Source of the DNA: Shigella phage Sfin-3
Sequence record: MN296515
Strand: one strand, 5' to 3'
Length of the DNA stretch: 50,309 nucleotides
Shown one piece after another: positions 311 to 49,206 of this stretch (within the stretch, counting starts at the first letter, position 1; each line of letters opens with the position of its first letter). The position numbers were made by a program, and so were the translations under genes. A model generated the notes under the pieces. That model searched no databases and was not told the DNA's origin. It worked only from the letters and a program-made list of their open reading frames with translations.

Positions 311-350
311 CAAGAATTGCTAAACCTTCCGCAAGGCCATTTGATATAGT
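308..350 (+). promoter_or_regulatory. composite promoter module (palindrome TAGCA-agaat-TGCTA, 22-nt spacer, -10 TATAGT)
   Basis: Palindrome 308-322; -10 345-350 inside hairpin 333-356; ATG 391. Confidence 0.55.
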
Positions 351-390
351 GGCCTTATTGAAGCACGGCAACCAATCAGAGGAATCAGCT

Positions 391-603
391 ATGGCTACAC
401 GACTCACGCAGTGGCAGATTTACGACAAGGCTTCACGCCTTCGTGAATCACTTCGAGGTCTGACACCGAACGATCGCATGGAAATCATCGGTCATGCATT
501 GCACGAACTAACGTCTCAGGACGTAATCTATCATTCGTGCGGCAATAAGTTATGGAACGTAACATTTGAGGTAAAGAAAGATGAGCAAGATTCACAAACT
601 TAA
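391..603 (+). CDS. hypothetical protein (70 aa)
   Basis: ATG 391 preceded by AACCAATCAGAGGA RBS and promoter module 308-350; track ORF 349 begins with GTG inside the promoter hairpin. Confidence 0.55.
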   Translation: MATRLTQWQIYDKASRLRESLRGLTPNDRMEIIGHALHELTSQDVIYHSCGNKLWNVTFEVKKDEQDSQT

Positions 604-868
604 GATCAATCCTGTACATTTCATTGGTGTAATGAACGGAACCAAAACGGCAGAGTTCCGCATTAATGACCGCAACTTCCAGCTTGGCGATATCCTGGAG
701 CTATGCGAGTTCGATCGTGACGAGTTTACCGGGTGGGAAGTTCACGCCAGGGTGTCCGATGTTACAGACGTGACGCCATACATCAATCGCGGGTATGACG
801 ATCAGGAATGCGACTTCACGCAATACGTGATGTTATCAATCAAACCTTACAGGAAGGTTAGACCATGA
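581..868 (+). CDS. ASCH/DUF3850-like protein
   Basis: 95 aa; N-terminal KLKINPVHF...G.KT.EFR.NDR.FQ.GD pattern resembles ASCH/PUA-like DUF3850 domains; RBS gaggtaaag. Confidence 0.55.
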   Translation: MSKIHKLKINPVHFIGVMNGTKTAEFRINDRNFQLGDILELCEFDRDEFTGWEVHARVSDVTDVTPYINRGYDDQECDFTQYVMLSIKPYRKVRP

Positions 869-1503
869 AATTTGAATGCGTATCAAGTGACGGAACGGGA
901 TTTAAGTGGGGAAAAATCTACGAAGGCGCTCGCGTCAATAACGACAGCTTCGTTGTCGTGGATGAGCACGGTAGCAATGTGAACATCATCCGTCGTCACG
1001 AATACCAAGAAATTTTCCTGCCGTATGGCGGTAGTTCAAAATATATCTTCCATCGAATCGTGGATGGTGTTAAATTTAACGACGTAATCGAAGCAATCAA
1101 CCAACTGCATAATAAAGAGGTAAAATTTATGAAATTTGAATGTATCAGTGATAACACCAAAAAATTTACTGTTGGCAAAATCTACGACGTTCCTACTGAG
1201 CACGCAAAGCACACTGTAGCGCTTACTGACGACACGGGCCGTCACCGCATTGCTACCGTAACGCATAATGGCGAAGGTCTGCGATGGAATAGCGGCAGCA
1301 CTAAGTTTGCAACGTTCGGCAAGAAGCGTAAGCGCACTTTCTGCGTTAAAGGCAAGGTTGCAGCAAACAAGATCCACAACGTCAAGCCGTCGGAAGTTGA
1401 CAGCAAGCCAGCACTTAAGTTTGAAGATAAGGCAGATTTGTCTGGTCTGGCTATCGCTCTTGTTCTCCTGGTTGCTTCGATTTCTCTGATGTTCATCATG
1501 TAA
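865..1503 (+). CDS. tail-anchored membrane protein with internal tandem repeat
   Basis: 212 aa; two ~65 aa repeats each starting MKFEC(V/I)S...GKIY; C-terminal hydrophobic helix LAIALVLLVASISLMFIM. Confidence 0.6.
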   Translation: MKFECVSSDGTGFKWGKIYEGARVNNDSFVVVDEHGSNVNIIRRHEYQEIFLPYGGSSKYIFHRIVDGVKFNDVIEAINQLHNKEVKFMKFECISDNTKKFTVGKIYDVPTEHAKHTVALTDDTGRHRIATVTHNGEGLRWNSGSTKFATFGKKRKRTFCVKGKVAANKIHNVKPSEVDSKPALKFEDKADLSGLAIALVLLVASISLMFIM

Positions 1504-1510
1504 TTTTAAC

Positions 1511-1544
1511 GGGGAATCGGCTCTGAACGGTTCCCCTTTATTTT
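1511..1544 (+). terminator. rho-independent terminator candidate
   Basis: Stem GGGGAA/TTCCCC (1511-1516 / 1531-1536) with 14-nt loop, then TTTATTTT. Confidence 0.4.
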
Positions 1545-1556
1545 GGAGAAAACACT

Positions 1557-1667
1557 ATGCCAGACTTTTCTAACTGGAATAACGAGCCGCCATCATTTCA
1601 GGAGTTGCTATTCTGCCTCTTGGTCCTGACATTATCTCTTAAGGGTGTTTTATGGCTACTATCATGA
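1557..1667 (+). CDS. hypothetical small hydrophobic peptide (36 aa)
   Basis: ATG 1557 with GGAGA RBS directly after hairpin 1511-1544; hydrophobic LLFCLLVLTLSL; overlaps next ORF. Confidence 0.3.
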   Translation: MPDFSNWNNEPPSFQELLFCLLVLTLSLKGVLWLLS

Positions 1668-1870
1668 CAGCAGAAGATGCAGCACGCGACGCAGTGGAAG
1701 GAATGCGCCCAAATACCTCCAGAATAGCACACTACTACAAATCTGAGGTGTCGGCAGTGCAATTGGTCAACGAAATTTTAAGGCTGCCACAAGTCGATTC
1801 AGCGCGCGTGGTGACGTGCTTAAAAAATTATTTTTGCATCACTATTAAAACGAATAGCACGAATTGCTAA
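1652..1870 (+). CDS. hypothetical protein (72 aa)
   Basis: Track ORF; weak AGGG RBS; TAA stop lies inside promoter-module palindrome 1855-1869. Confidence 0.35.
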   Translation: MATIMTAEDAARDAVEGMRPNTSRIAHYYKSEVSAVQLVNEILRLPQVDSARVVTCLKNYFCITIKTNSTNC

Positions 1871-1897
1871 AACCTATCAAGGGGAATGCGCTATGAT
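1855..1897 (+). promoter_or_regulatory. composite promoter module (TAGCA-cgaat-TGCTA, 22 nt, -10 TATGAT)
   Basis: Palindrome 1855-1869; -10 1892-1897 in hairpin 1881-1902; ATG 1928. Confidence 0.55.
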
Positions 1898-1927
1898 TCC
1901 CCTACACCAACAAACGAGGAAACGATA

Positions 1928-2374
1928 ATGAAACACTTAATCTGCATTGAAGCGCCTAACTATGAATACACTCTGCACGGCATTGGAATGTTCAAAGGCC
2001 ACTACATGACAGCAAGCATTTATGATGCGCATCGAGGCGATGGCGATCTAATGATTACTTCAAAAGAAGTTAATCCGTACATCATGCAGAATCTCGGGAA
2101 CAATGAGTATATGGCTTACGGATGCAACGCGGTGTACAAGCATATCAAGATCCGCAAGCGCGTAGTTCGCGCATTCAAGAAGATTGCAATTAAATACTGG
2201 AAGATGAGCAAGAAGGACGCCGGAACATGGGCGCGTAACGTTGCTGATTCATACTTCTATCGTAACGGTGAGTCGTGCTACTTTTTGATCGATGATATTC
2301 ATGACAATTACGGCGGCTCATTCAGTCAGGAAGAGTTTGATAGCTGGGCTGAATACGAGATCAGTTGCTGGTAA
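1928..2374 (+). CDS. hypothetical protein (148 aa)
   Basis: ATG 1928 with GAGGA RBS downstream of module 1855-1897; track ORF 1886 starts inside promoter hairpin. Confidence 0.6.
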   Translation: MKHLICIEAPNYEYTLHGIGMFKGHYMTASIYDAHRGDGDLMITSKEVNPYIMQNLGNNEYMAYGCNAVYKHIKIRKRVVRAFKKIAIKYWKMSKKDAGTWARNVADSYFYRNGESCYFLIDDIHDNYGGSFSQEEFDSWAEYEISCW

Positions 2375-2417
2375 TAGCACTAATTGCTAAAACTTGCTCA
2401 AGGGCATTTGATAGAAT
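2375..2417 (+). promoter_or_regulatory. composite promoter module (TAGCA-ctaat-TGCTA, 22 nt, -10 TAGAAT)
   Basis: Palindrome 2375-2389; -10 2412-2417 in hairpin 2401-2422; ATG 2458. Confidence 0.55.
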
Positions 2418-2457
2418 GCCCTTCGTTGAGTTAAGCAACCAATCATAGGAATAAATC

Positions 2458-2991
2458 ATGGATAAAATTACCATTTGGGGTCAAACTATCAACCTGTTTC
2501 TCGGCACGCGATGCGTGGCAATCTTTGACTTTGACGGAACGCTTAGTGATGGATCAAAGCGCCTTCACCTGTTGCCGACAAAGGATTTGCACTTAACTGA
2601 AAGCTGGTCTGAGTTTAACCGAGCGGCAATATTTGATAACCCAATCCAGAGCACGATTGAGGTTATGAACTCTATGTTTGCTGCCGGGTATCACGTAATA
2701 GTTTTAACCGGGCGAAGTGATGAGGTTCGTTACGCATCTGAGTTATGGCTTAAGCATCACGGTGCGAGATATGATTACTTAGTCATGCGACCGCACACAG
2801 ACAACAGGAAAGACACGGTGATGAAAGAAGAAGCGGTTCGAGCGATCGGTATTGAAAACATCCTGGCAGCTTGGGATGACTCACCGCAAATTATTCCATT
2901 ATTCCGGTCGCTTGGAATAACAACATATGCGGTAGTTGACTATGGCGATAACATTCACGATCATTTAAAATCGCACGGGGTAGAGAAATGA
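2458..2991 (+). CDS. HAD-family phosphatase, T4 Pnk 3'-phosphatase-domain-like
   Basis: 177 aa; IFDFDGTLSD (DxDGT motif), VIVLTGRSD, RKDTVMKEE align by eye to the C-terminal phosphatase domain of T4 polynucleotide kinase. Confidence 0.7.
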   Translation: MDKITIWGQTINLFLGTRCVAIFDFDGTLSDGSKRLHLLPTKDLHLTESWSEFNRAAIFDNPIQSTIEVMNSMFAAGYHVIVLTGRSDEVRYASELWLKHHGARYDYLVMRPHTDNRKDTVMKEEAVRAIGIENILAAWDDSPQIIPLFRSLGITTYAVVDYGDNIHDHLKSHGVEK

Positions 2992-3098
2992 ACCTATACG
3001 AATTTATTGCAGCACATCCGGTATTGACGGTTATCATCCTGCTAATCATCAATCACACCATCATCAATATGGCAAAATTATTTTTAGGGAGATACTAA
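2988..3098 (+). CDS. hypothetical small membrane peptide (36 aa)
   Basis: ATG overlaps upstream TGA (ATGA); hydrophobic core VLTVIILLIINHTII; not in ORF track. Confidence 0.3.
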   Translation: MNLYEFIAAHPVLTVIILLIINHTIINMAKLFLGRY

Positions 3099-3099
3099 T

Positions 3100-3672
3100 A
3101 TGAAAACAGCTATCATTTTAAACGGCGCTCCTGGAGCAGGCAAGGACACTATCGGATGCATCCTGGCTGACACTTACGATCATGTAGCTTTGCGCAGCTT
3201 CAAAGCACCAATGTTTGAGATTGCTCGGGCAATACTGGGTGAGGCTAACTACGAGTATTTCATGTTCTTGTATGAGGATCGTCGTTACAAAGAAGAGCCA
3301 GCGTCAATCCTGAACGGTAAAAGCCCTCGCCAGTTTATGATCTGGATTAGCGAGGAAGTCATCAAGCCACAGTTCGGAAATCGATTCTTCGGTATGCGAG
3401 CGGAAAGCAAGGTCAAAGAGTCATATTCTCTGTCAGTATTTACTGATGGTGGATTCAAAGATGAGGTATTGCAGATGATTGAAGGTGATATCCAGGTCAA
3501 GCTATGCCGAATCCACCGCAAAGGCTGCAACTTTGACAACGACAGTCGTGATTATATTTACCTGGAAGATATGATCGGGGTTAATGGTTATCAGGAGTGT
3601 GATTTTTTCTCTGTCGAAGGTCATCCAGAAATTACCGCTCAGCACATAGCCGCTACGTTCATCAACAAATAG
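3100..3672 (+). CDS. P-loop nucleotide kinase, dNMP kinase (T4 gp1)-like
   Basis: 190 aa; Walker A GAPGAGKDT and ILNGKSPRQ resemble T4 deoxynucleoside monophosphate kinase; TAG stop is first triplet of palindrome 3670-3684. Confidence 0.65.
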   Translation: MKTAIILNGAPGAGKDTIGCILADTYDHVALRSFKAPMFEIARAILGEANYEYFMFLYEDRRYKEEPASILNGKSPRQFMIWISEEVIKPQFGNRFFGMRAESKVKESYSLSVFTDGGFKDEVLQMIEGDIQVKLCRIHRKGCNFDNDSRDYIYLEDMIGVNGYQECDFFSVEGHPEITAQHIAATFINK

Positions 3673-3712
3673 CACGAATTGCTAAAACGTCGGTGGGGTG
3701 ATTTGATATAGT
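3670..3712 (+). promoter_or_regulatory. composite promoter module (TAGCA-cgaat-TGCTA, 22 nt, -10 TATAGT)
   Basis: Palindrome 3670-3684; -10 3707-3712; ATG 3745. Confidence 0.55.
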
Positions 3713-3744
3713 TACCTCATCGACAACGAAGAGAGAAAATCGAA

Positions 3745-3954
3745 ATGATGGTATCAACTGATAAGTTTTTCACTTGCACTAAAACTTCTGAAGTATTCGA
3801 ACTCGTTCATACTGATAACGGTGATTTCATGCATGACGGTTGCGACGTTTTCATTGAAGTGAAAGAAAGCGACTATGATGACGGAGTTTATTACAACCCG
3901 GCAGTGAACACTCAGTTTTTTACACCGATCGAAGATGAAGGAGAAGAGGCATGA
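3745..3954 (+). CDS. hypothetical protein (69 aa, acidic C-terminus)
   Basis: Track ORF; GAGAGA RBS; downstream of module 3670-3712. Confidence 0.55.
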   Translation: MMVSTDKFFTCTKTSEVFELVHTDNGDFMHDGCDVFIEVKESDYDDGVYYNPAVNTQFFTPIEDEGEEA

Positions 3955-5449: not shown

Positions 5450-5459
5450 TAAATACTAA

Positions 5460-5480
5460 CCCGCTACGGCGGGTTTTTTT
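5460..5480 (+). terminator. rho-independent terminator
   Basis: CCCGC-tacg-GCGGG followed by T7; ends left early gene block. Confidence 0.65.
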
Positions 5481-5500: not shown

Positions 5501-5515
5501 TAGCACTAAATGTTA
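5501..5515 (+). promoter_or_regulatory. degenerate palindrome copy (TAGCA-ctaaa-TGTTA) without 22-nt-spaced -10
   Basis: Sits between terminator 5460-5480 and TerS start; only TATATT 11 nt downstream. Confidence 0.35.
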
Positions 5516-5533
5516 AACAAAGAGGGTATATTT

Positions 5534-12187: not shown

Positions 12188-12208
12188 CACAAAAACACTT
12201 TGACGCTT

Positions 12209-12223
12209 TAACAAAAAGTGCTA
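12209..12223 (-). promoter_or_regulatory. orphan palindrome copy, antisense to late operon
   Basis: Minus-strand reading TAGCA-ctttt-TGTTA; no - strand gene downstream; adjacent to terminator 12232-12257. Confidence 0.35.
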
Positions 12224-14838: not shown

Positions 14839-15226
14839 GTTATCAGCGGCGGCGCGAGCCGCTTTTCTATCAAAGTACAGAGACTTTCCTCACTACATGG
14901 AAAACAGAAATTTCATACCGCCGAAGGATGGCGGGATGTGGCTGAGGTTCAACTACATTGAAGGGGATACGCTTTATCTATCCATTGACAGAAAGTGTAA
15001 ATCTTACATCGCAATCGTTCAGATCGGAGTAGTGTTCCCTCCAGGATCCGGCGTTGACGAAGCAAGATTGAAAGCAAAAGAGATTGCTGATTTTTTCAAA
15101 GATGGTAAAATGCTTAACGTTGGTTATATTTTCGAGGGTGCAATCGTGCATCAAATTGTTAAACATGAAAGCGGGTGGATGATTCCGGTTCGCTTTACAG
15201 TACGAGTAGACACAAAGGAGACTTAA
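14828..15226 (+). CDS. putative tail terminator/neck protein
   Basis: 132 aa; immediately upstream of tail tube gene. Confidence 0.45.
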   Translation: MHYELSAAARAAFLSKYRDFPHYMENRNFIPPKDGGMWLRFNYIEGDTLYLSIDRKCKSYIAIVQIGVVFPPGSGVDEARLKAKEIADFFKDGKMLNVGYIFEGAIVHQIVKHESGWMIPVRFTVRVDTKET

Positions 15227-15934: not shown

Positions 15935-15973
15935 TCTGTAAAATCATCGTATCAAGTTTGCACTATTCTCTTT

Positions 15974-15988
15974 TAACAAAAAGTGCCA
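15974..15988 (-). promoter_or_regulatory. orphan palindrome copy, antisense to late operon
   Basis: Minus-strand reading TGGCA-ctttt-TGTTA between tail tube and chaperone genes; 22 nt then TACGAT on minus strand. Confidence 0.35.
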
Positions 15989-31493: not shown

Positions 31494-31508
31494 TAGCACG
31501 AATTGCTA
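31494..31508. promoter_or_regulatory. palindrome copy in operator position at tail-fibre promoter
   Basis: TAGCA-cgaat-TGCTA lies between the predicted TSS of the - strand sigma70-like promoter (31516-31544) and the tail-fibre RBS. Confidence 0.45.
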
Positions 31509-31515
31509 AACACAG

Positions 31516-31544
31516 ATTTTATCATTGTGCTATTGGTCTTGCAA
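31516..31544 (-). promoter_or_regulatory. sigma70-like promoter for tail fibre gene (TTGCAA-17-TAAAAT)
   Basis: Minus-strand -35 31539-31544, -10 31516-31521; palindrome 31494-31508 begins at predicted TSS. Confidence 0.5.
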
Positions 31545-31550
31545 CGGGCA

Positions 31551-31574
31551 ATAAAAAACCGCCCGAAGGCGGTT
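31551..31574 (-). terminator. minus-strand terminator after primase gene
   Basis: Minus-strand reading AACCGCC-ttcg-GGCGGTT followed by T6. Confidence 0.6.
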
Positions 31575-32508
31575 ATAGTAGGTCACTTGCTGAGAATAAC
31601 TTAGCTTGCATTCCTGAACGGTATCCTCCAGGATTCGGGATGATTATTTTTAATTGCCGGTCGTCAGCCATGTATAAAGTCTCCTTATCTGAAGGTTCGC
31701 ACGCCACTCTTACCTCGCGATCTCCTTTGTATCTGTACGCAACCATTTCGAGATTTTCAGGAGTGAAGCAGGCCCACACCTCTTGCTTTGTGTGAAATGC
31801 AATATGCTGAGCATCAATCCAATTAAGGCATAAGTAGATCGCTTTTTCAGTTTTACCAGTCACGGCAACCGAGCAACTTGTGTATTTCTTAGCGTAAAAT
31901 GACTCCCTTCCTTCCTCATCAATAATCAAAATATTGCAAAATTCATCATCAAGACCGTCCTCGTGTACAAGTTGACATGGTATGGTGTGAAATACGCTCT
32001 CGCCGCCATCCTCGCGACGTTTTACGCCAACGTCGAATGATTCGGTTGGTAGCGACTCAAACATGCTTAGAGGCGTGTTTACGCGCTTCTCTGTACGCTC
32101 CATGACTTTCATCACTGCCTCATGGTCTGCCATCATGACGTTTACGCCAGCTACCGGAGTGCGGCGCGCTTTCTTATTTGCCTTGACAATGTACTCCTGC
32201 GGAACTTTTCCGAGGAATCTCCCCAAGATGTTTATGCATTCGCTGTACGGCATACCAGTTAATTTCATCAACCAACCGATCCCGGAGTCATTGCCGCATG
32301 AGTTACAGATCGCACCGCCGTCTCCCGGAGTGTTTAGGTTGTCAGTCCAGCGAAAACGGTCTTTGCCGCCGCAGTTAGGGCAAGGCTGGTGCTTCTTGTT
32401 GAATACCTCGTTCGGTAATCCGCAGACGGACTGGAACGCATCGCGCCATAACCCCTTCATATACGGCAATACGTCCTCTTTCTGAAACATCATAAATTCT
32501 TCGTTCAC
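31573..32508 (-). CDS. DNA primase (zinc-ribbon + TOPRIM-like)
   Basis: 311 aa; CPNCGGKDRFRW...CNSCG zinc ribbon then acidic IIDEEG / EDGLDDEF motifs; GTG start 32508 with GGAG RBS (ATG 32493 alternative). Confidence 0.6.
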   Translation of the reverse strand: MNEEFMMFQKEDVLPYMKGLWRDAFQSVCGLPNEVFNKKHQPCPNCGGKDRFRWTDNLNTPGDGGAICNSCGNDSGIGWLMKLTGMPYSECINILGRFLGKVPQEYIVKANKKARRTPVAGVNVMMADHEAVMKVMERTEKRVNTPLSMFESLPTESFDVGVKRREDGGESVFHTIPCQLVHEDGLDDEFCNILIIDEEGRESFYAKKYTSCSVAVTGKTEKAIYLCLNWIDAQHIAFHTKQEVWACFTPENLEMVAYRYKGDREVRVACEPSDKETLYMADDRQLKIIIPNPGGYRSGMQAKLFSASDLL

Positions 32509-32521: not shown

Positions 32522-32559
32522 AATAAAAAACGCGTAGAAGGATGTTAACCCGCTACGCG
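32522..32559 (-). terminator. minus-strand terminator candidate after Cro-like gene
   Basis: 7-bp stem ACGCGTAG/CTACGCGT with 15-nt loop followed by T7 on minus strand. Confidence 0.45.
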
Positions 32560-32568
32560 TCGTTTGTT

Positions 32569-33021
32569 TTAACTAAAAATGCTATTGGTCGTTCCGATAT
32601 CTTCCTTCTTGACAACTCGCATAAACTTCTTGTTTTTGCAGCGCTTCTCAAGGCACTTGCCGTTCCCATCAAACTTCAGATCGAATCGCAGCCATGCGGC
32701 CCGAAATCCTTTGCAACCCTGTCGGCGATAAGCACGATGCGCCGCTTCAGCGCCTTGCCAGGAAATCATATTTCGATCCTTCCACCCTTGAACCGTCTGG
32801 TTGCTAACTTTCAGAGCCTTTGCGCAAGCCGCCGGACCACCATAATATTCAATAAGAGCATCCAATCGCGCTCTCAGTCCTGCGCGCGTTTCTTCTTTAT
32901 GGATATAAAATCCGCAGCGCTGGCGAGGCTTTTTATCTTTACCGCGTCGTGTTCCGTTGTTACCATTGATGTGACGTTTATCGATTTCACCAGTAGACTC
33001 TGCGATACGCTTCATATTCAT
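32569..33021 (-). CDS. Cro/YdaS-like HTH DNA-binding protein
   Basis: ATG 33021 with GGAGA RBS (track start 33093 would overlap the promoter); central ...ACAKALKVSNQTVQGW...RFDL resembles YdaS/Cro-type HTH; basic N-terminus. Confidence 0.5.
   Translation of the reverse strand: MNMKRIAESTGEIDKRHINGNNGTRRGKDKKPRQRCGFYIHKEETRAGLRARLDALIEYYGGPAACAKALKVSNQTVQGWKDRNMISWQGAEAAHRAYRRQGCKGFRAAWLRFDLKFDGNGKCLEKRCKNKKFMRVVKKEDIGTTNSIFS
32570..32584 (-). promoter_or_regulatory. degenerate palindrome copy (TAGCA-ttttt-AGTTA) at 3' end of Cro-like gene
   Basis: Encodes the C-terminal NSIFS* of the Cro-like protein; followed on minus strand by terminator 32522-32559. Confidence 0.3.
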
Positions 33022-33034
33022 ATTAATTCTCCTG

Positions 33035-33077
33035 TAGCACTTTTTGCTAAAAACGTTTACTGTATGCCGTGTATTAT
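33035..33077 (+). promoter_or_regulatory. composite promoter module for helicase operon (TAGCA-ctttt-TGCTA, 22 nt, -10 TATTAT)
   Basis: Palindrome 33035-33049; -10 33072-33077; GTG 33116; palindrome is also in the 5' leader of the divergent Cro-like gene. Confidence 0.55.
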
Positions 33078-33101
33078 ATCGTAAACGATACAACGATTCA
33101 A
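33073..33101 (-). promoter_or_regulatory. sigma70-like promoter for Cro-like gene (TTGAAT-17-TATAAT)
   Basis: Minus-strand -35 33096-33101, -10 33073-33078; its -10 overlaps the + strand -10 (33072-33077) of the helicase promoter. Confidence 0.55.
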
Positions 33102-35134: not shown

Positions 35135-35547
35135 TTACAGATAAAGGCGATTACTTAGAGTTTTACGAGCGAGATCCTAGCGACACGCGAAAGGAGGACG
35201 CTCATCAAGTAGACTGCGTGTCCTGGTTGAAATACAATTTTCCTCAGCTTCTATTTTGGCACACAGTTAACGAAGGTGAAAAAACAATCACTTCGGCACT
35301 TAGGGATGAGCAGGCTGGATTACTTAAAGGCGTATCAGACTTTGTTATTCTGATTGGTATAAACTCACGTTACCCGTTCGCAGCTATCGAACTCAAGCGG
35401 GTTAATAAGTCCGGCAAAGGAAAGGCATCACCAGTCAGCGATAAGCAAAGGGAGTTTCTCAAAAAGGTTCGGGATCGCGGTGGATTCTCTGCCGTTGCAT
35501 ACGGATTTGAGCAATTCAAGCTGGCAATATACGATTTAACGAAATAG
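35131..35547 (+). CDS. VRR-NUC domain nuclease
   Basis: 138 aa; GVSDFVI...ELKRVNKSGKGKASPVSDKQREF pattern of VRR-NUC (PD-(D/E)XK) domains. Confidence 0.7.
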   Translation: MITDKGDYLEFYERDPSDTRKEDAHQVDCVSWLKYNFPQLLFWHTVNEGEKTITSALRDEQAGLLKGVSDFVILIGINSRYPFAAIELKRVNKSGKGKASPVSDKQREFLKKVRDRGGFSAVAYGFEQFKLAIYDLTK

Positions 35548-35587
35548 CACTTTTTGCTAAACATGCCGGAATGGATTCTGGCATTAT
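35545..35587 (+). promoter_or_regulatory. composite promoter module (TAGCA-ctttt-TGCTA, 22 nt, -10 CATTAT)
   Basis: Palindrome 35545-35559; -10 35582-35587; ATG 35615 (dam). Confidence 0.5.
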
Positions 35588-35614
35588 TATCTCACTGAAA
35601 CGAGAGGATTAAAA

Positions 35615-36328: not shown

Positions 36329-36576
36329 TGAACGATAAAATGATTCCGGTTAAGTTAACTGATCAAGGTTTATGGCTGCTTTATCGAGCTACCTGCTGCG
36401 AAATTATGGAGCGAAACGGATTGACTCAGGATGTTATTGGTTGCGATCTGTGGGAGTTCACTAGTTCTCTTGATATGTCTTTCGATGAGATAAAAAATGA
36501 ACACATAGAGAATTGGCCTTCAATCATACAGAAAGACGTGGAAGAACTTAAAGCTTATACAATCGTAAAGCACTAA
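36325..36576 (+). CDS. hypothetical protein (83 aa)
   Basis: ATG 36325 overlaps dam stop (ATGA), RBS GTGAGGAAAG; TAA stop inside palindrome 36568-36582. Confidence 0.55.
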   Translation: MMNDKMIPVKLTDQGLWLLYRATCCEIMERNGLTQDVIGCDLWEFTSSLDMSFDEIKNEHIENWPSIIQKDVEELKAYTIVKH

Positions 36577-36610
36577 TTGCTAAAACTACCCGGCGAAAGT
36601 CGGGTATAGT
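36568..36610 (+). promoter_or_regulatory. composite promoter module (AAGCA-ctaat-TGCTA, 22 nt, -10 TATAGT)
   Basis: Palindrome 36568-36582; hairpin 36588-36605; -10 36605-36610; ATG 36643. Confidence 0.55.
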
Positions 36611-36642
36611 TATTTCATCAAAACGAAATGAGGAATAAGAAG

Positions 36643-37412: not shown

Positions 37413-38564
37413 ATGTCACAAGCTAAAATCACTACCGAGCAACTTATCGAAGAGCGCATGAGCGGCCTTACACTTCGCGAGATTGCGGAAAAGTACGGTA
37501 TGCACATCCGCACTGTTGAAGCTCGTCACGCAAAACTTGCAAAGGAAGGTCACTTCCACGGTAACGAGCATGTTGCTAAGAACGTACCGGAAGGATTCAT
37601 GGTAAAAGGCACATCAACGATGATTCGCGGCGATGGGACCGAGGTAGTGCGATGGGTTAAGACCGATCAGGACCGTGAGAAGATTGCGGCAATGATGGAA
37701 GCAGCGCGTATTGCATTCTGTGAAGACTTGCCGCGAGCAAAACCAACTGAGCTACTCACATCGCAAGGGCTTACAACCGCTATTGGCAAGCTGGCACTCT
37801 ACCCGGTGTTCGATCTTCACATTGGCGCGCTTGCTCACAAGCATGAATGCGGAGAGAACTACTCTACAGACGTAGCGGAAAAAGTGCTGAATGACTTCTT
37901 TAACTACGCGATCGATATTGCCCCGAACGCAGAGAAGGCTGTTCTGTTAATCGGCGGCGACTTCCTTCACTCAGACGGTCTTGATGCTGTTACCCCGGCA
38001 AGCGGTCACGTTCTGGATCAGGATTCACGATATGCGAAATTGGTGCATGTGGCTATTCGATCGGTGCGACGAGCTATCGACAAAATGCTGACTAAACACA
38101 AAGAGGTCGAAGTTCAGGTTATCGAAGGGAACCACGACCAGGCCGGAATGATTTGGCTACGCGCTGCAATGGCTGCATACTATGAGGACGAGCCGCGAGT
38201 ATTCGTTGACGTTAGTCCTATGATTCTGCATAAGACCCGCTGGGGAAATACCTTGTTGGGATACACTCACGGTCACACGATGAAAAAGGCAGACACGCGA
38301 CTTGCAGCGATGGCGGCAGACTTCCGTGCAGACTTCGGTGAAAGCAAATACGTGTATACTCACAGTGGACACTGGCACCATCAAACAATCACAGAACACT
38401 CGTTAGGTATTGATGAGGTTCACGGGCAGTTAGGCGCGAAAGATGCATACGCCGCGCGAGGCGGGTGGCGCTCATATCGCCAGGCGGCGGTAATCGTTTA
38501 CGATAAACAGTTTGGTGAAATCGGTCGATTCATCTATCGTCCAGAAATGACAGGATCGCACTAA
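37413..38564 (+). CDS. HTH domain fused to calcineurin-like metallophosphoesterase
   Basis: 383 aa; N-terminal LTLREIAEKYGMHIRTVE (sigma-region-4/LuxR-like HTH); then DLH, GDFLHSDG, GNHD, GHTM, GHWHH phosphoesterase motifs. Confidence 0.65.
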   Translation: MSQAKITTEQLIEERMSGLTLREIAEKYGMHIRTVEARHAKLAKEGHFHGNEHVAKNVPEGFMVKGTSTMIRGDGTEVVRWVKTDQDREKIAAMMEAARIAFCEDLPRAKPTELLTSQGLTTAIGKLALYPVFDLHIGALAHKHECGENYSTDVAEKVLNDFFNYAIDIAPNAEKAVLLIGGDFLHSDGLDAVTPASGHVLDQDSRYAKLVHVAIRSVRRAIDKMLTKHKEVEVQVIEGNHDQAGMIWLRAAMAAYYEDEPRVFVDVSPMILHKTRWGNTLLGYTHGHTMKKADTRLAAMAADFRADFGESKYVYTHSGHWHHQTITEHSLGIDEVHGQLGAKDAYAARGGWRSYRQAAVIVYDKQFGEIGRFIYRPEMTGSH

Positions 38565-38598
38565 TTGCTAAAAATACCCGAATGGACTCGGGTATAGT
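38556..38598 (+). promoter_or_regulatory. composite promoter module (TCGCA-ctaat-TGCTA, 22 nt, -10 TATAGT)
   Basis: Palindrome 38556-38570; hairpin 38575-38594; -10 38593-38598; ATG 38628. Confidence 0.55.
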
Positions 38599-38627
38599 AG
38601 ACACATAGAAAATAAAGAGGACATATC

Positions 38628-38804: not shown

Positions 38805-38826
38805 CAATATCATTCATAACCTTACG

Positions 38827-38856
38827 GGCTGGCATGGTTTACATGCTGGCCTTTTT
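38827..38856 (+). terminator. rho-independent terminator before lysis cassette
   Basis: 10-bp stem GGCUGGCAUG/CAUGCUGGCC (two G-U pairs), loop guuua, then T5. Confidence 0.55.
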
Positions 38857-39626: not shown

Positions 39627-40027
39627 TGAAACTGAAGAAAACGTGCATTGCGATTGCGGTGGCTGTTGGCGTTATTTCTCTATCCGGTTGCTCGACGGCA
39701 TCTGCTCTGAGCGGTTTAATTGGATCTAAACCGGAAGTTACGGCGCAGATTGGAGAGGAGAACACAAAGCAATTAGCAGGAGTAACCGCAAAATCCGAAG
39801 ATAAGCGAGATGTTAAAGTTGAGAAGTCCAATGTAGGAAAGGTTGACTCTTCCGTGAAAAAATCAATTGAAGTGTCAACCATTAAGGCCAACACAGTTAA
39901 CGCTGAAAGCATCACAGTCACTAAGCCTGGTAATTGGTACGACGCAATAGTTGTATGCACTCTCGTTTTAATTGGTCTGTTGATGGTTTATTTTTCACTT
40001 CGTAAGGACGGAAAAAAGGAGGCCTAG
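39623..40027 (+). CDS. unimolecular spanin (lipoprotein with C-terminal TMD)
   Basis: 134 aa; signal peptide with lipobox LSGC and C-terminal [20 protein letters not shown]; architecture of T1 gp11-type u-spanin. Confidence 0.65.
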
Positions 40028-40041
40028 CCTCCTTTTCTTTT
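40012..40041. terminator. bidirectional terminator between convergent spanin gene and - strand early arm
   Basis: AGGAGG-cctag-CCTCCT flanked by A5 and T-rich runs; spanin stop codon lies in the loop. Confidence 0.6.
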
Positions 40042-40255: not shown

Positions 40256-40292
40256 GATGTTTTCCTTCAGGTCGTTTCATTTCGATGAAACA

Positions 40293-40335
40293 AATATACC
40301 CGATACGAGATCGGGTGTTTTAACAAAAAGTGCTA
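40293..40335 (-). promoter_or_regulatory. composite promoter module, minus strand (TAGCA-ctttt-TGTTA, 22 nt, -10 TATATT)
   Basis: Palindrome 40321-40335; hairpin 40298-40316; -10 40293-40298; ATG 40255. Confidence 0.5.
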
Positions 40336-42425: not shown

Positions 42426-42454
42426 CACAATAAACTCCTTAGTTGACGGTGTAA

Positions 42455-42497
42455 ATGATACACCGCCAATGGTATACGCTTTTTGCAAAAAGTGCTA
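42455..42497 (-). promoter_or_regulatory. composite promoter module, minus strand (TAGCA-ctttt-TGCAA, 22 nt, -10 TATCAT)
   Basis: Palindrome 42483-42497; -10 42455-42460 inside hairpin 42448-42464; ATG 42425. Confidence 0.5.
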
Positions 42498-42918: not shown

Positions 42919-42954
42919 TTCGTTAACTCCTGATTGGTTATCTTGAATAAGGTC

Positions 42955-42997
42955 ACTTTATCAAATGACCTTACGGCAATATTAACAAATCGTGCTA
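42955..42997 (-). promoter_or_regulatory. composite promoter module, minus strand (TAGCA-cgatt-TGTTA, 22 nt, -10 TAAAGT)
   Basis: Palindrome 42983-42997; -10 42955-42960 inside hairpin 42950-42972; ATG 42918. Confidence 0.5.
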
Positions 42998-43436: not shown

Positions 43437-43468
43437 TTTTAATTCCTTTGTTTGTTTGATGTGGGAGT

Positions 43469-43512
43469 AATATACCTTACTCCCTGATGATTGTCTTTAG
43501 CTATTCGTGCTA
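43469..43512 (-). promoter_or_regulatory. composite promoter module, minus strand (TAGCA-cgaat-AGCTA, 23 nt, -10 TATATT)
   Basis: Palindrome 43498-43512; -10 43469-43474 in hairpin 43463-43484; ATG 43436. Confidence 0.45.
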
Positions 43513-44790: not shown

Positions 44791-44821
44791 CTTATCAATC
44801 TCCTGATTGGTTGGTGTGTTC

Positions 44822-44864
44822 ACTATACCCCGATTCCCTTCGAGGCGTTTAGCAAAAAGTGCTA
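44822..44864 (-). promoter_or_regulatory. composite promoter module, minus strand (TAGCA-ctttt-TGCTA, 22 nt, -10 TATAGT)
   Basis: Palindrome 44850-44864; -10 44822-44827; ATG 44790. Confidence 0.55.
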
Positions 44865-45051: not shown

Positions 45052-45066
45052 TTTCTGACCCGTTAA

Positions 45067-45252: not shown

Positions 45253-45286
45253 TTTTGTTTTTCCTCAATCTCGTTTCGATGAGGTA

Positions 45287-45329
45287 ATTATGCCAAATCA
45301 CACCGATCGAGTTTTAACAAAAAGTGCTA
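45287..45329 (-). promoter_or_regulatory. composite promoter module, minus strand (TAGCA-ctttt-TGTTA, 22 nt, -10 CATAAT)
   Basis: Palindrome 45315-45329; -10 45287-45292; ATG 45252. Confidence 0.5.
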
Positions 45330-46018
45330 TCCGCGATAGCTTTAAAAAATCCCCTGGGCGACAGGGATCGTATCAACTTAGTTTTGGCAGATTTGCCGCC
45401 CAGCTTGTTTTGCTGTGCAGAGTACCCGTCAGGCAGGTTTACAGGTTTTCTCTCGGGCATGACAAAATCGCCAGAGGTCCAAAGACAAGTTTTCTTCGGA
45501 TAAGCATCGCGCGGCGCAATATACATCGGGAACCAGGGATGTGAGTCATTCTCAGGAAGATAGCCGCCATACTCCCAGGGATTGAAGGAGTGATTTGGTT
45601 TTCTCCACGCAGACGACAGGACGCTCACCGGATTCTCAATGATGTAAGTCACGCCCAGGCTATCTCCAATGTTCGCAGCAATCCGGGCGGTGGCGACAGC
45701 TTTCTCCTGGAACAACGGATCACGTTCACGCTTGCTGGCAAAGTGGCGAGCACCACTAACAGCCAGGTCAGTGCACGGCGGGAAGGCTATAATGAAATCC
45801 GGCTTGCCATACACGCCAGCTATAGCATCACGCTCAAACGCTGCGTCAATGAACACGTTCACATACTCAATGTTCGGATGCTCCACTCGGGCATTGTACT
45901 TTGCATAATCCCCGTGATCGGCTCCGTCAAAGTTGAAGCACATCACCTTGTGACCTTGCTTAGCCAGTTCATGACCTGCAAGGCCGGAACCGTCGAATAG
46001 CGACCAAATCAACTTCAT
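45314..46018 (-). CDS. small DNA (cytosine-5)-methyltransferase-like protein
   Basis: 234 aa; motif I SLFDGSG, motif IV FPPC (catalytic Cys), motif VI ENP in canonical order; shorter than typical C5-MTases. Confidence 0.55.
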   Translation of the reverse strand: MKLIWSLFDGSGLAGHELAKQGHKVMCFNFDGADHGDYAKYNARVEHPNIEYVNVFIDAAFERDAIAGVYGKPDFIIAFPPCTDLAVSGARHFASKRERDPLFQEKAVATARIAANIGDSLGVTYIIENPVSVLSSAWRKPNHSFNPWEYGGYLPENDSHPWFPMYIAPRDAYPKKTCLWTSGDFVMPERKPVNLPDGYSAQQNKLGGKSAKTKLIRSLSPRGFFKAIADSTFC

Positions 46019-46158
46019 TTTGCGATCTCCTTTTTGTAGTGATTCAGCTTGTCGATGATTGACTTCGACTTGTTGGCTAGCGCCATGTCAGAGAACAGAG
46101 CCACGCGATAGATGTGTTCGTAACGATTAATGGCCGCGTTGATGTTTGCAATATTCAT
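46015..46158 (-). CDS. hypothetical small protein (47 aa)
   Basis: ATG 46158 with CAACCAATCAGAGGA RBS; track GTG start 46197 would overlap the -10; stop overlaps next ATG. Confidence 0.45.
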   Translation of the reverse strand: MNIANINAAINRYEHIYRVALFSDMALANKSKSIIDKLNHYKKEIAK

Positions 46159-46188
46159 GTCGATTCCTCTGATTGGTTGATGTGATGA

Positions 46189-46233
46189 ATCATACACTGC
46201 CAGCCTGACCAGGTCGTTAGCAAAAAATGCTAT
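46189..46233 (-). promoter_or_regulatory. composite promoter module, minus strand (perfect TAGCA-ttttt-TGCTA, 24 nt, -10 TATGAT)
   Basis: Palindrome 46219-46233; -10 46189-46194; ATG 46158. Confidence 0.5.
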
Positions 46234-46433
46234 TCCAATAGTTGCTCATTATTCCACCAGTAATGGAATATCTGGAATAATTGCGATCCCGATTGATCTC
46301 GAATGATGAAATGTGATTGTTGCATGATGTGCAACTGTTGATGTGATTGTTGCTTGGAATGCAATGATTGTGAGAGGGAGGATTTAGTGTTACCCGGTTC
46401 GCCTGGTAGTCATCTCCATTTTTAGCAAAACGT

Positions 46434-46448
46434 GCTATCGATTACACT
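46434..46448 (-). promoter_or_regulatory. palindrome copy (TAGCA-cgttt-TGCTA) without evident -10
   Basis: Minus-strand orientation in intergenic region B; no TATAAT-like hexamer at 22-24 nt. Confidence 0.35.
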
Positions 46449-46754
46449 TTAACTTGTCACGACTGTAATATTTGTCTAGAATCGCACTTGTGACAAAATT
46501 ACGCACTGTGACGCATAACAATAGACATGTAGATATATGTATATATATAATATATATAGTGTTTTTTTATTTATATATATAGATAATCATATTGTAATGG
46601 TTGTGTATAGCCGTCTTACATTGTCTAGCGTACTGTTGGCATATTTCTATCTGCATGTTTATATATACAGTACTTTTTTGAGAGCCATATATTTCTATAT
46701 GGACCCTAGACAGCTAGACAAATGTTACACAGCTTAAAATTGGCTCGCAGGCAT

Positions 46755-46783
46755 TGACAGCCCTACATTGCGCCGTCACAATG
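46755..46783 (+). promoter_or_regulatory. weak sigma70-like promoter candidate (TTGACA-17-CACAAT)
   Basis: -35 46755-46760 perfect, -10 46778-46783 poor; in AT-rich region B upstream of gene 46842. Confidence 0.3.
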
Positions 46784-46841
46784 GCAATTGTTGACATGTT
46801 ATGACAACATTTACACATCAATAGACAAATAAGGATGAATT

Positions 46842-47357
46842 ATGAGCAATACCAATCAGGAATTAAAAATCACCGATATGATTCGACTAACCTGCGATGC
46901 AATGTACCGCGACAAAGGCATGACCGAGTTCTCTTTCGTGGCTGATGATATGGCCATCGAGGCCGCGCGATTCTACTTCCGTGGCCAGGAGGTAAGCGAT
47001 GCCGATCTTGAATCTGCCGCTGCCGGATGGGTGGACCAGAACCAGGGGGAGGTAGAGAAGAGATTCAAGTCCGCTTTCATTACTCCGATCATTACCCGGC
47101 ACTTTTGCAAGTACGGCAAGGTGGCAAAGGTGAAGGTAGGCCGGAATGACGCGGCAATCACAATGATAACCGTTATCGTTACAGACGAAGAGGTTCCAGT
47201 GAAGAAACGCCGTAGCCGGAAAAAAGTTAGCCTGGCCGACTGCCTGGATTCGTTTGATGTTGATGTTAGCAAGCTATCCGATAGCGAGTTAATGGTTCGT
47301 GATGTGAATGAGATCGTGCGCCAGATGAAAGCGCATATTGAAAAGTGTGGACTGTAA
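46842..47357 (+). CDS. hypothetical protein (171 aa)
   Basis: Track ORF; first gene after AT-rich region B; AAGGATGAA RBS. Confidence 0.6.
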   Translation: MSNTNQELKITDMIRLTCDAMYRDKGMTEFSFVADDMAIEAARFYFRGQEVSDADLESAAAGWVDQNQGEVEKRFKSAFITPIITRHFCKYGKVAKVKVGRNDAAITMITVIVTDEEVPVKKRRSRKKVSLADCLDSFDVDVSKLSDSELMVRDVNEIVRQMKAHIEKCGL

Positions 47358-47372
47358 CGCTGATAGGTGAAA

Positions 47373-47415
47373 TAGCACTTTTTGTTAAAGCTCGGTCGAG
47401 CGGATCGGGTATTAT
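47373..47415 (+). promoter_or_regulatory. composite promoter module (TAGCA-ctttt-TGTTA, 22 nt, -10 TATTAT)
   Basis: Palindrome 47373-47387; -10 47410-47415; ATG 47448. Confidence 0.55.
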
Positions 47416-47447
47416 CTTTTCATCGACACGATACAGAGGAAACGAAG

Positions 47448-47642
47448 ATGGAAACGCAAATTGACGTAGTGGTTGTTCAGCGGGACTCAACTCATGAAAA
47501 GGGTCTTTTCAAGAAAGGAACCGAAATCACGATCGACCTTGAGGATATGGTTGCGTATCACTCGGGCCTTACCTGGAACGTGGTGCGCGTAGGGAGCGAC
47601 TACAAACTCAAAGGCTTTAACACTTACTTTGCGGAGGCTTAA
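47448..47642 (+). CDS. hypothetical protein (64 aa)
   Basis: ATG 47448 with CAGAGGAAACGAAG RBS after module 47373-47415. Confidence 0.5.
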   Translation: METQIDVVVVQRDSTHEKGLFKKGTEITIDLEDMVAYHSGLTWNVVRVGSDYKLKGFNTYFAEA

Positions 47643-47644
47643 TC

Positions 47645-48115
47645 ATGGCGACAATTACCGTATTTCTTGCTAAAGATGAACTTGACGATGAAATGTCATT
47701 CTTCGCATTCGAGCACAAAACCGGATCGCACTGGCACACTTACAGCCATTACACGGTTATCTCAATCGAAGCGTACGACGGCGAACTGCTCACTGATAAA
47801 CTGAGTAATTTCATTGAAGCCGTTAAAGCTAGCGGCGGCTGCGAGTGGAAGGAAGATCACGAAGTTATGCGAATGCTTGAGATGGTCAATCCGGTTCGAC
47901 TTGAGTCTTTCGAGCTTGATTCTGACGTGAGCATTAAGGTGAGAAAGCCGGGTGAGTTGTTGCCGGGGATGCGTGTGCTGACTGGTTACTCAGGTCGTAA
48001 AGTGTGGCGAACCATATCGAAGATTCGCCAGCGTTCGGCAACATGCTATAGCGTATTCTTTGATGACGGCTGGAATGAGGTTGCTGGTAGTAACGTGAAG
48101 TATCTTACCAAATAG
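47645..48115 (+). CDS. hypothetical protein (156 aa)
   Basis: Track ORF; TAG stop is first triplet of palindrome 48113-48127. Confidence 0.55.
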   Translation: MATITVFLAKDELDDEMSFFAFEHKTGSHWHTYSHYTVISIEAYDGELLTDKLSNFIEAVKASGGCEWKEDHEVMRMLEMVNPVRLESFELDSDVSIKVRKPGELLPGMRVLTGYSGRKVWRTISKIRQRSATCYSVFFDDGWNEVAGSNVKYLTK

Positions 48116-48155
48116 CACGAATTGTTAAAACAGGATCGGGGTATCTTGCTATAGT
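48113..48155 (+). promoter_or_regulatory. composite promoter module (TAGCA-cgaat-TGTTA, 22 nt, -10 TATAGT)
   Basis: Palindrome 48113-48127; -10 48150-48155 inside hairpin 48138-48161; ATG 48194. Confidence 0.55.
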
Positions 48156-48193
48156 TACCCCATCAAAACGAGATACCAATCAGAGGATTCACC

Positions 48194-48424
48194 ATGTCAA
48201 TCGTCAAGAACCAACAAGCCATCGACTCAACCAGCCACAACCGCTTTGCTATTTTCATCACATCTATAGGTCGCCGATTTGCAGTTAAGGCCGCGCCTGG
48301 TGGATACAAAACATACATGGAGGATAACGGGAAATGGGTGTGGTGCGAAAACCTAGCCAACTTCCTGGTATGGAACGCAGACCTGCAAGGATTCGATGAT
48401 ATCAGCACTTTAATTGAGGAGTAA
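48194..48424 (+). CDS. hypothetical protein (76 aa)
   Basis: Track ORF; ACCAATCAGAGGA RBS; module 48113-48155 upstream. Confidence 0.5.
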   Translation: MSIVKNQQAIDSTSHNRFAIFITSIGRRFAVKAAPGGYKTYMEDNGKWVWCENLANFLVWNADLQGFDDISTLIEE

Positions 48425-48430
48425 ATAATA

Positions 48431-48658
48431 ATGCCACGTTACAGTAACCTAACCAAACTAGTCCGCGTCAACGGGCATATGATCCCGGCTAAATCTACTC
48501 ACTGCGCGAAAGGCGCAAAGCACGGATTATATTTCAAGTGGCGCGGTCAATGGAACTTCACGGCGGTGAGCAATTTTTACATGCGAGTTCCAGGTGATGA
48601 CCCGCAATCGGTAGTAGAAAACTCAATAGGTGACAACAAGATCGAGGTGCTAAAATGA
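48431..48658 (+). CDS. hypothetical protein (75 aa)
   Basis: Track ORF. Confidence 0.5.
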   Translation: MPRYSNLTKLVRVNGHMIPAKSTHCAKGAKHGLYFKWRGQWNFTAVSNFYMRVPGDDPQSVVENSIGDNKIEVLK

Positions 48659-48765
48659 ACTTCAATACAATAGCTCTATGGTCTGCCGTCTGGTTCTTCT
48701 GCATGGGTCACGTTATGGTCGGCATCGTGGTAATGCTTCCCCTGTGTGCGGGGGCGTTCGAATGA
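48655..48765 (+). CDS. hypothetical small membrane peptide (36 aa)
   Basis: ATG overlaps upstream TGA; hydrophobic ALWSAVWFFCMGHVMVGIVVMLPL; below ORF-track cutoff. Confidence 0.35.
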   Translation: MNFNTIALWSAVWFFCMGHVMVGIVVMLPLCAGAFE

Positions 48766-48935
48766 TGCGAATATTGATTTGCATGATGGCGGCTGTCGCC
48801 CTGGCTATCCTGGTAGTGTCCGGCTGCGGCGAGGTCAAAGAGCGATGCCATGAAACCGGGAGCCAGGCTACTACTTTCGTGATGGTTGGCAATGTTTTGC
48901 TACCAATCACATCAAATGAGATCACTTGCGAATAG
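48762..48935 (+). CDS. putative small lipoprotein (57 aa)
   Basis: ATG 48762 overlaps upstream stop (ATGATG); signal peptide with lipobox VVSGC; track ORF 48678 has a longer unsupported N-terminus. Confidence 0.45.
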   Translation: MMRILICMMAAVALAILVVSGCGEVKERCHETGSQATTFVMVGNVLLPITSNEITCE

Positions 48936-48944
48936 GATTTAACA

Positions 48945-49136
48945 ATGGCTGATTTTATGCACCAAATGATTGCAGTATTCAAAGGTAGTGAGGACCAGGA
49001 AGTGAAAGAGTGCTTTACCGTTGACAAGCCTTATAGTGCGTCGCTAACCAGCTTCGGTAACGTCTCATTGCTTGATGATAATGGCGACCCCTGGGTATTC
49101 GACGAAGATACTGATTGCTTCGAAATTAAAGAATAG
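48945..49136 (+). CDS. hypothetical protein (63 aa)
   Basis: Track ORF; TAG stop is first triplet of palindrome 49134-49148. Confidence 0.5.
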   Translation: MADFMHQMIAVFKGSEDQEVKECFTVDKPYSASLTSFGNVSLLDDNGDPWVFDEDTDCFEIKE

Positions 49137-49176
49137 CACTTTTTGTTAAAACTCAATTCCGGGGTTGCGATATAGT
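49134..49176 (+). promoter_or_regulatory. composite promoter module (TAGCA-ctttt-TGTTA, 22 nt, -10 TATAGT)
   Basis: Palindrome 49134-49148; -10 49171-49176 inside hairpin 49161-49182; ATG 49207. Confidence 0.55.
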
Positions 49177-49206
49177 AACCCCATCGATAACGAACGAGGA
49201 TTTATC

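Follow-up and report, generated by a model that had tools for sequence, protein, structure and literature searches.

The genome of Shigella phage Sfin-3 raises the question of why a promoter-like module that stands before about 20 of its genes carries, between an upstream repeat and the predicted start of transcription, a hairpin whose stem sequence differs from copy to copy while its pairing is kept. The stretch analysed here (record MN296515, 50,309 nt, one strand; hereafter the window) is 98% identical over its first 8 kb to Shigella phage phi2457T, and 309 phage records match it in all. As the phi2457T record is classified under Drexlerviridae, Tunavirinae, Tunavirus, the window represents a T1-like phage of the genus Tunavirus. 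In this study, we found that the hairpins exceed chance and that their stems covary, with the sense strand as the favoured strand, and it is suggested that they may mark the ends of upstream transcripts.

The repeat and the predicted promoter

The modules, which a preliminary description of the window had called promoter modules, contain TAGCACnnnTTGnTAAAA, and this is the published 21-nt direct repeat of Drexlerviridae, aaATAGCACnnnTTGnTAAAA. The paper on this repeat describes it in phage TLS and also mentions it for T1, Rtp and Rogue1; its authors found only three canonical sigma-70 promoters in TLS, named the role of the repeat among the questions still to be answered, and suggested stoperators, enhancer sites or UP elements (PMC11447400). 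Neither "hairpin" nor "stem-loop" appears in the text of that paper. The window holds 25 copies of the TAGCACnnnTTGnnAAAA repeat with at most two mismatches. They are of the TLS type in consensus, in intergenic position and in orientation along the direction of transcription, with the exception of the copies 12223 (-), 15988 (-) and 31494 (+), which oppose the local direction.

For a wider sample, five complete Tunavirus genomes were combined with 120 IMG/VR stretches obtained by an exact scan for the repeat. This yielded 339 unique modules from T1-like contigs, and 94 chance matches of the motif in unrelated viral contigs served as a natural control. Grouped by the gene downstream, the modules formed 156 orthologous groups, and one representative per group was used for counts. 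In 66 of the 111 modules that follow a co-directional open reading frame (ORF), this ORF has its stop codon in the TAG at the start of the repeat (TAGCAC; e.g., 308-310, 2375-2377 and 48113-48115), and the stop codon ends 0-1 nt before the repeat in another 24 of those 111 groups. Because the TAG of the repeat is the upstream stop codon, the promoter spacer would be the only non-coding room for a hairpin that is kept out of the next 5' untranslated region.

When the window modules were aligned on the repeat, a -10 hexamer was found exactly 22 nt after TTGnTA. Its information profile is of the sigma-70 type, with peaks at T-12, A-11 and T-7 plus the G of an upstream TG, and the predicted -10 is often TGn-extended. 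The -10 stands at this fixed position in 136 of the 156 groups, followed by a leader and a GGAG-type Shine-Dalgarno sequence, and 88 of these 136 have C-A at the predicted -1/+1, about 7 nt past the -10. From this anatomy we infer promoter activity and a start site at the A. The leader after C-A resembles ATCGAAACGA and runs into the Shine-Dalgarno sequence; from about +1 to +11 it is kept across non-orthologous modules and phages as C-A-TCGAAACGA, often followed by AACCAATCAGGAG, as at 48162-48172, 49183-49193 and 45270-45280.

No -35-like hexamer was found 16-18 nt upstream of the -10, the best match being 2-3 of 6, and a simple sigma-70 scan does not call the module promoters. Since a -35 is missing at the normal spacing, the repeat, at about -49 to -31, would have to supply promoter recognition, either through contacts with RNA polymerase (RNAP) or through a phage factor. 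The repeat is a partial palindrome, TAGCA-N5-TGCTA, with its centre near -42. The ORF 32569-33093 (-) has a weak match to Cro/YdaS-like helix-turn-helix proteins (E = 7e-5, below the Pfam cut-off), and its orthologues in ADB-2, EF3-1 and AHS24 are annotated as "transcriptional regulator"; its product is a candidate factor for the repeat.

A sigma-54 promoter was also considered for the repeat and rejected. The repeat, for example TGGCACTTTTTGTT at 15970-15988 (-), resembles the sigma-54 consensus, TGGCAC-N5-TTGC with GG-N10-GC spacing; it reads TAGCAC-N3-TTGC, however, with a spacer that lacks 2 bp and, in most copies, AG in place of GG. The best canonical sigma-70 matches of the window (46454-46482, 46522-46551 with 11 of 12 positions, and 46754-46782) all lie inside 46420-46830, a divergent control region that codes for no protein and has (TA)n-rich repeats. 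They probably serve as immediate-early promoters and are thus unlike the modules of the repeat type.

The hairpin and the selection on its pairing

The ten hairpins listed in the preliminary description all contain the inverted repeats named there. Folded as RNA, 14 hairpins of the window reach -9.3 to -20.9 kcal/mol, with z-scores from -3.0 to -5.9 against dinucleotide shuffles. Of the 25 window modules, 11 have a perfect Watson-Crick stem of 6 bp or more within 42 nt past the motif, compared with 5.8% of random window segments, and the mean minimum free energy is -10.8 compared with -5.8 kcal/mol. When G:U pairs and bulges are allowed, 15 window modules form hairpins and 3-4 more form bulged ones, which makes up most of the approximately 20 modules with a -10. 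The same excess was seen in the wider sample: the 339 T1-like modules have a mean z of -2.4, with 60% below -2, compared with a mean z of -0.3 and 7% for the 94 chance matches. A hairpin is present in 115 of the 156 groups, while about 26% of shuffles have one (approximately 40 groups expected). A search of the window against Rfam gave no matches at the gathering score.

The hairpins start 0-8 nt past the repeat and end in one of two registers. Their 3' ends are bimodal, falling at position -1 in 40 of the 156 groups and on the first bases of the -10 in 29, and this upholds the earlier statement that the hairpin wraps or abuts the -10. In class I, which comprises 65 groups and is the majority of the 115, the hairpin wraps the -10 and its 3' arm forms the discriminator and ends at -1. 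In class II (39 groups), the hairpin fills the spacer, typically as (T)ACCCG...CGGGTA, and its 3' arm abuts the -10; the TG motif is found in only 4 of 37 class II promoters. GNRA tetraloops account for 10 of the 35 four-base loops, and GNRA or UUCG tetraloops are frequent in class II. The repeat subtypes (GAA, TTT and TAA) did not predict the hairpin class.

To measure covariation, the 3' arms were dealt among the modules with the columns fixed, and the modules with at least five consecutive pairs were counted per register. The main class I register (i+j = 35) held 35 such modules compared with 10.3 +/- 2.9 after permutation, the second class I register (i+j = 37) held 19 compared with 7.1, and the class II register (i+j = 19) held 15 compared with 5.8; the control registers showed no pairing excess. 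As a MAFFT alignment of 133 module representatives put gaps into every row, the pair count was made on a family of 29 sequences picked by loop alone (TTTGnTAnAnT) and aligned without gaps, and all modules were tested by the fixed-register permutation above. In this family, 95.1% of cells are paired compared with 78.3% in shuffles, and the covariation score is 0.532 compared with 0.213; for each measure, 0 of 500 shuffles was as high. When the partners were slid by 1-3 columns, 34-50% of cells were paired. Six of the seven pairs vary on both sides, and one of them occurs as GC, CG, UA, GU, UG and AU. Taken together, the permutation and the pair count support the claim that selection acts on structure rather than on sequence.

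The preliminary description had proposed to look for covariation across homologous modules in related phages; among close orthologues, the evidence for such compensatory change is thin. Among close orthologues the change rate rises from 5.4% in stems to 7.6% in loops and 10.6% in flanks. In orthologues that are at least 70% identical, 21 single changes keep pairing and 31 break it, and double changes keep it in 4 cases and break it in 4. These compensatory events are too few to decide, and the covariation signal stems from diverged paralogous and orthologous copies. In several groups, entirely different hairpins stand before the same gene in different phages, and the same hairpin families stand before different genes.

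We next to this compared the two strands with a hairpin finder that scores G:T and A:C alike. Internal G:T pairs outnumber A:C by 124 to 14 in all modules and by 56 to 7 in the group representatives, while shuffles give about 1:1. The composition of the arms predicts 56% G:T, and the excess over this has p = 2e-8. Folding favours the sense strand over the antisense by 1.57 kcal/mol, and the sense strand is the better one in 104 groups compared with 52 (p = 4e-8); the controls showed no such asymmetry between the sense and antisense folds. Judged from these sequences, selection acts on one strand, the sense strand, most likely as RNA in read-through transcripts and less likely as non-template DNA, and not on a cruciform.

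Possible roles of the hairpin

As the 3' arm ends at or before the predicted -1, the transcript of a module itself would lack the hairpin, and only RNA reading through from upstream would contain it. On balance, and with moderate confidence, we suggest that the hairpin of the cassette is an RNA stem-loop that marks the end of the upstream transcript, like the promoter-early stem-loops (PeSLs) of T4-like phages. The cassette, which stands at a gene boundary, opens with the repeat, whose TAG is often the stop codon of the preceding gene, and has a sigma-70-type -10 at 22 nt; squeezed between the repeat and the predicted start, the stem-loop is selected as a single-stranded structure of the sense strand and, being confined to upstream read-through RNA, would most likely serve as a transcript-boundary element. 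Where the tail is U-rich, that is, in class II hairpins with the -10 as tail and in a few canonical cases, it may attenuate or terminate transcription. The other hairpins may act as a 3' end or a processing barrier that insulates neighbouring cistrons. The preliminary description had proposed RNA hairpins in read-through transcripts as one of two options; the strand asymmetry fits this proposal, and the U-tract of a terminator is absent from most hairpins.

Several observations weigh against this role at transcript ends. Class I tails have 1.98 T in the 8 nt past the last G-C pair, which is the background level, and 23% have at least 4 T. An RNase III site needs about 20 bp or more of (interrupted) double-stranded RNA, and the stems here, with 6-11 pairs and one of 15, are too short for this enzyme. 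The G:T asymmetry is also compatible with a hairpin in the non-template DNA strand. In favour of the role, the share of modules with a hairpin is higher where a co-directional ORF ends at the motif (81% vs 53%), but this contrast is modest and its class without such an ORF is contaminated by tiny genes. Many modules of Rogunavirus AHS24 carry weak hairpins only. For T1-like phages, the literature that was searched offered neither transcriptome data nor mapped starts or ends of transcripts.

In AHS24, the modules at 15106, 33017, 33702 and 44512 have spacer hairpins of 4-5 bp with a common AAGGAT loop, as in CGCAAGGATGCG. Because these AAGGAT-loop hairpins of a Rogunavirus are short, hairpin strength varies between genera.

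A stronger version, in which the cassette couples termination to re-initiation, seems improbable to us. According to it, a hairpin ending at -1 would free or shorten the upstream transcript at a time when the polymerase is positioned on the next promoter, and the 21-nt repeat, perhaps with the Cro-like helix-turn-helix protein of the phage, would enable this polymerase to start again at +1. Gene expression would thus proceed through tiled, short and separately stabilised transcripts from a factor-dependent class of promoters that lacks a -35 and, in class II, also an extended -10.

The hairpins could also be ordinary rho-independent terminators of the upstream genes that overlap the promoter only because intergenic space is short, and we consider this unlikely, although it agrees with several modules. 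The module at 32525-32584 (-), with its motif at 32566-32584, has a stem followed by T6 (z = -4.1) and is a canonical intrinsic terminator; TAACAT stands in its loop at the -10 position, and its orthologous group covaries. Class II tails are T-rich, with 3.4 T in 8 nt and at least 4 T in 41%, because the -10 follows the stem, and four class II hairpins pass a loose terminator-like scan with the T-rich -10 as tail. The AAGGCC...GGCCTTATTG family has a UUAUUG tail. In AHS24, one class II hairpin was annotated by the depositors as a rho-independent terminator overlapping a promoter; the annotated terminators of that genome lie mostly in the late region, and only one module is overlapped. On the other hand, the hits of the scan are not enriched over shuffles, and the clear terminators of the window (1511-1536, 5458-5475, 38826-38852 and 40014-40036) have real T-runs, unlike the hairpins of the modules. 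A G+C-rich hairpin with an immediate U-tract is found at 32584 (-) and in some class II modules, not in most hairpins. As most hairpins lack the U-tract and the T content past the class I stems is that of the background, canonical termination is not their general function.

We consider it rather improbable that the structure arises in non-template DNA when the duplex opens, replicates or recombines, and that it modulates the promoter itself, for instance by offering a single-stranded -10. In favour of this, the strand asymmetry shows selection on the sense strand and no more, the hairpin occupies exactly the interval from the repeat to +1, and GCGAAAGC-type loops are very stable in DNA too. 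However, regions 2 and 1.2 of sigma-70 bind the T at -7 and the discriminator unpaired. The class I stems pair both of these, so their pairing would inhibit the promoter. In the open complex, the DNA of the 5' arm remains double-stranded, and G:T is tolerated nearly like a regular pair (56 G:T compared with 800 Watson-Crick pairs), which is typical of RNA. Moreover, the first module of the leftward operon, with its repeat at 46437 (-), has neither a -10 nor a hairpin.

We regard as very unlikely a scheme in which the 21-nt repeat alone forms a promoter specific to the phage and the hairpin is a stabilising stem-loop at the 5' terminus of the transcript, as in the class III transcripts of T7. 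The length and conservation of the repeat match promoters of single-subunit RNAPs, its orientation follows transcription, and the hairpins start directly or shortly after it. This leaves the fixed-distance -10 with its TG and the C-A at -1/+1 unexplained, and the TLS study found genes for neither an RNAP nor a sigma factor in T1-like genomes (PMC11447400).

It is scarcely credible that the inverted repeats are functionless by-products of recombination or duplication between cassettes. The exchange of hairpin families between genes and phages described above would be expected of such events, and the modules are enriched in homology breakpoints, as 11 of the 51 breakpoints against five relatives fall in module spans that make up 4.2% of the window (p = 8e-6, a value not controlled for intergenic location). 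Shuffling, however, cannot produce double changes that preserve pairing, the slower evolution of stems or the bias of G:T over A:C. Least probable of all are DNA cruciforms aiding promoter melting, the first option of the preliminary description: many stems are perfect inverted repeats of 6-9 bp, but a cruciform requires pairing on both strands and the sense strand alone is favoured in both G:T content and stability, so that this reading is rejected. Short stems of 6-8 bp that close loops of 6-12 nt are also poorly extruded.

Modules of the window and related systems

The class I modules on the plus strand begin with that at 308-357, which has its motif at 308-326, the hairpin at 333-356 (AAGGCCA/TGGCCTT), an extended -10 TGATATAGT with the hexamer at 345-350, and a predicted +1 at about 357 (z = -3.4). 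The module at 1855-1904 (motif 1855-1873) has a hairpin at 1880-1903 and the -10 TATGAT at 1892-1897 (z = -3.3), and that at 2375-2424 (motif 2375-2393) has a hairpin at 2400-2423 and TAGAAT with TG at 2412-2417 (z = -3.7). At 48113-48162 (motif 48113-48131), the hairpin lies at 48138-48161 with TATAGT and TG at 48150-48155 (z = -3.0), and at 49134-49183 (motif 49134-49152) it lies at 49161-49182 with TATAGT at 49171-49176 (z = -4.0). The module at 3670-3724 (+; motif 3670-3688) carries the hairpin of 15 pairs, four of them G:U, at 3689-3724, which wraps TATAGT at 3707-3712 (z = -5.9). On the minus strand, class I hairpins are found at 42948-42973 in the module 42948-42997 (motif 42979-42997; TAAAGT with TG at 42955-42960; z = -5.8) and at 43463-43484 in the module 43463-43512 (motif 43494-43512; GGGAGTAA/TTACTCCC; z = -5.9). 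A hairpin of 11 pairs at 42443-42469 wraps TATCAT at 42455-42460 in the module 42443-42497 (-; motif 42479-42497; z = -5.1), and in the module 45280-45329 (-; motif 45311-45329) a bulged, G:U-rich hairpin wraps CATAAT at 45287-45292.

Class II hairpins on the plus strand are those at 35564-35583 (module 35545-35594, motif 35545-35563, CATTAT at 35582-35587, z = -3.7), at 36587-36606 with a GAAA tetraloop (module 36568-36617, motif 36568-36586, TATAGT at 36605-36610, z = -4.1) and at 38575-38594 (module 38556-38605, motif 38556-38574, TATAGT at 38593-38598, z = -3.5). The module at 47373-47422 (+; motif 47373-47391) has a class II-type hairpin at 47390-47410 and TATTAT at 47410-47415. On the minus strand, the hairpin at 40298-40316 belongs to the module 40286-40335 (motif 40317-40335; TATATT at 40293-40298; z = -3.2) and that at 44828-44845, which includes G:U, to the module 44815-44864 (motif 44846-44864; TATAGT at 44822-44827). 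The first module of the rightward helicase operon (33035-33093, +; motif 33035-33053; TATTAT at 33072-33077) has only a weak, long-loop hairpin. At 49912-49961 (+; motif 49912-49930; TACAAT at 49949-49954), the hairpin GGATT/AATCC is likewise weak and long-looped, and relatives have the 7 bp GGGGATT/AATCCCC.

Some repeat copies stand apart. That at 5501-5519 (+) directly follows the bidirectional terminator 5458-5475, lies 15 nt before the start codon of the terminase small subunit, and lacks both -10 and hairpin; here the repeat may stand alone, perhaps to be bound by a protein or another factor. The copies at 15937-15988 (-) and 12205-12223 (-) oppose the late structural genes. The 15988 (-) copy has an extended -10 (TTGATACGAT) that points towards a G+C-rich hairpin, GGGGGCGCAAGCCCCC, and is kept in 7 relatives, and it may yield a short antisense transcript. 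At 31494-31580 (+), the repeat lies between two minus-strand genes and its usual -10 position is empty; about 45 nt past the repeat there is a bidirectional terminator hairpin, AACCGCCCGAAGGCGGTT, and then TATAGT. Near the left end of the window, the small ORF 581-868 (+) matches DUF3850 (PF12961, E = 7e-16), and relatives annotate it as "RNA-binding protein" or ASCH-like.

The anatomy described here makes the question left open by the TLS paper testable and gives a concrete answer to a part of it: the repeat would be the upstream half of a predicted promoter cassette with a non-canonical 22-nt spacing, joined to a hairpin of the sense strand that is selected for its structure. The class II promoters, which lack a -35 and, for the most part, a TG, point to a different mechanism of recognition. 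Drexlerviridae include coliphages and Klebsiella phages used in therapy and engineering, and for engineering the modules may define natural insulated expression units.

Compared with known systems, the cassette resembles the hairpin promoters of the phage N4 virion RNAP and Frpo in that a promoter is tied to a DNA hairpin of variable stem sequence. Those promoters depend on an RNAP of their own or on single-stranded DNA, and their loops are short and defined, whereas the T1-like signature is that of sigma-70 and the T at -7 would be concealed by pairing. The middle promoters of T4 that depend on MotA share with it a -10, a phage-specific upstream box containing TGCT, and the lack of a -35. In T4, the MotA box has its centre near -30 and is separated from the -10 by 11-13 bp, while the T1-like box is 22 nt from it. 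Intrinsic terminators are similar in having a G+C-rich stem-loop just past a stop codon and tetraloops, and one module is a textbook case; most class I hairpins differ in lacking a U-tract, and their loops are long (6-12 nt). To the TLS-type repeat, the present analysis adds a -10 at a constant distance of 22 nt and a covarying hairpin within the module.

Of the systems described so far, the PeSL of T4-like myoviruses comes closest (Arbiol et al. 2010, PMC2839356; Comeau et al. 2014, PMC4122927). In a reporter assay, one of the PeSL stem-loops acted as a terminator, and PeSL cassettes mediate modular shuffling (PMC2839356; PMC4122927). Like the PeSL, the T1-like cassette is intergenic and recurs many times, with an A/T-rich portion upstream, a Shine-Dalgarno sequence and a start codon; its host-type promoter is a predicted one, with a -10 and no -35. 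In both systems, the stem-loop lies between the upstream promoter box and the -10, as in class II, or overlaps the -10, as in class I. Both also stand before small genes of unknown function and coincide with differences in gene content between relatives. The T1-like cassette differs in its lineage, as it belongs to siphoviruses of Drexlerviridae (Tunavirus), in having the 21-nt repeat 22 nt from the -10 instead of a -35 at N17, and in its hairpins, which fall into two discrete registers, one ending exactly at -1, and mostly lack a U-tract. Our findings would thus extend the PeSL idea, that cassettes combining promoter and transcript boundary also mark where genes are shuffled, to a phage family that is very common and not related to the T4-like phages.

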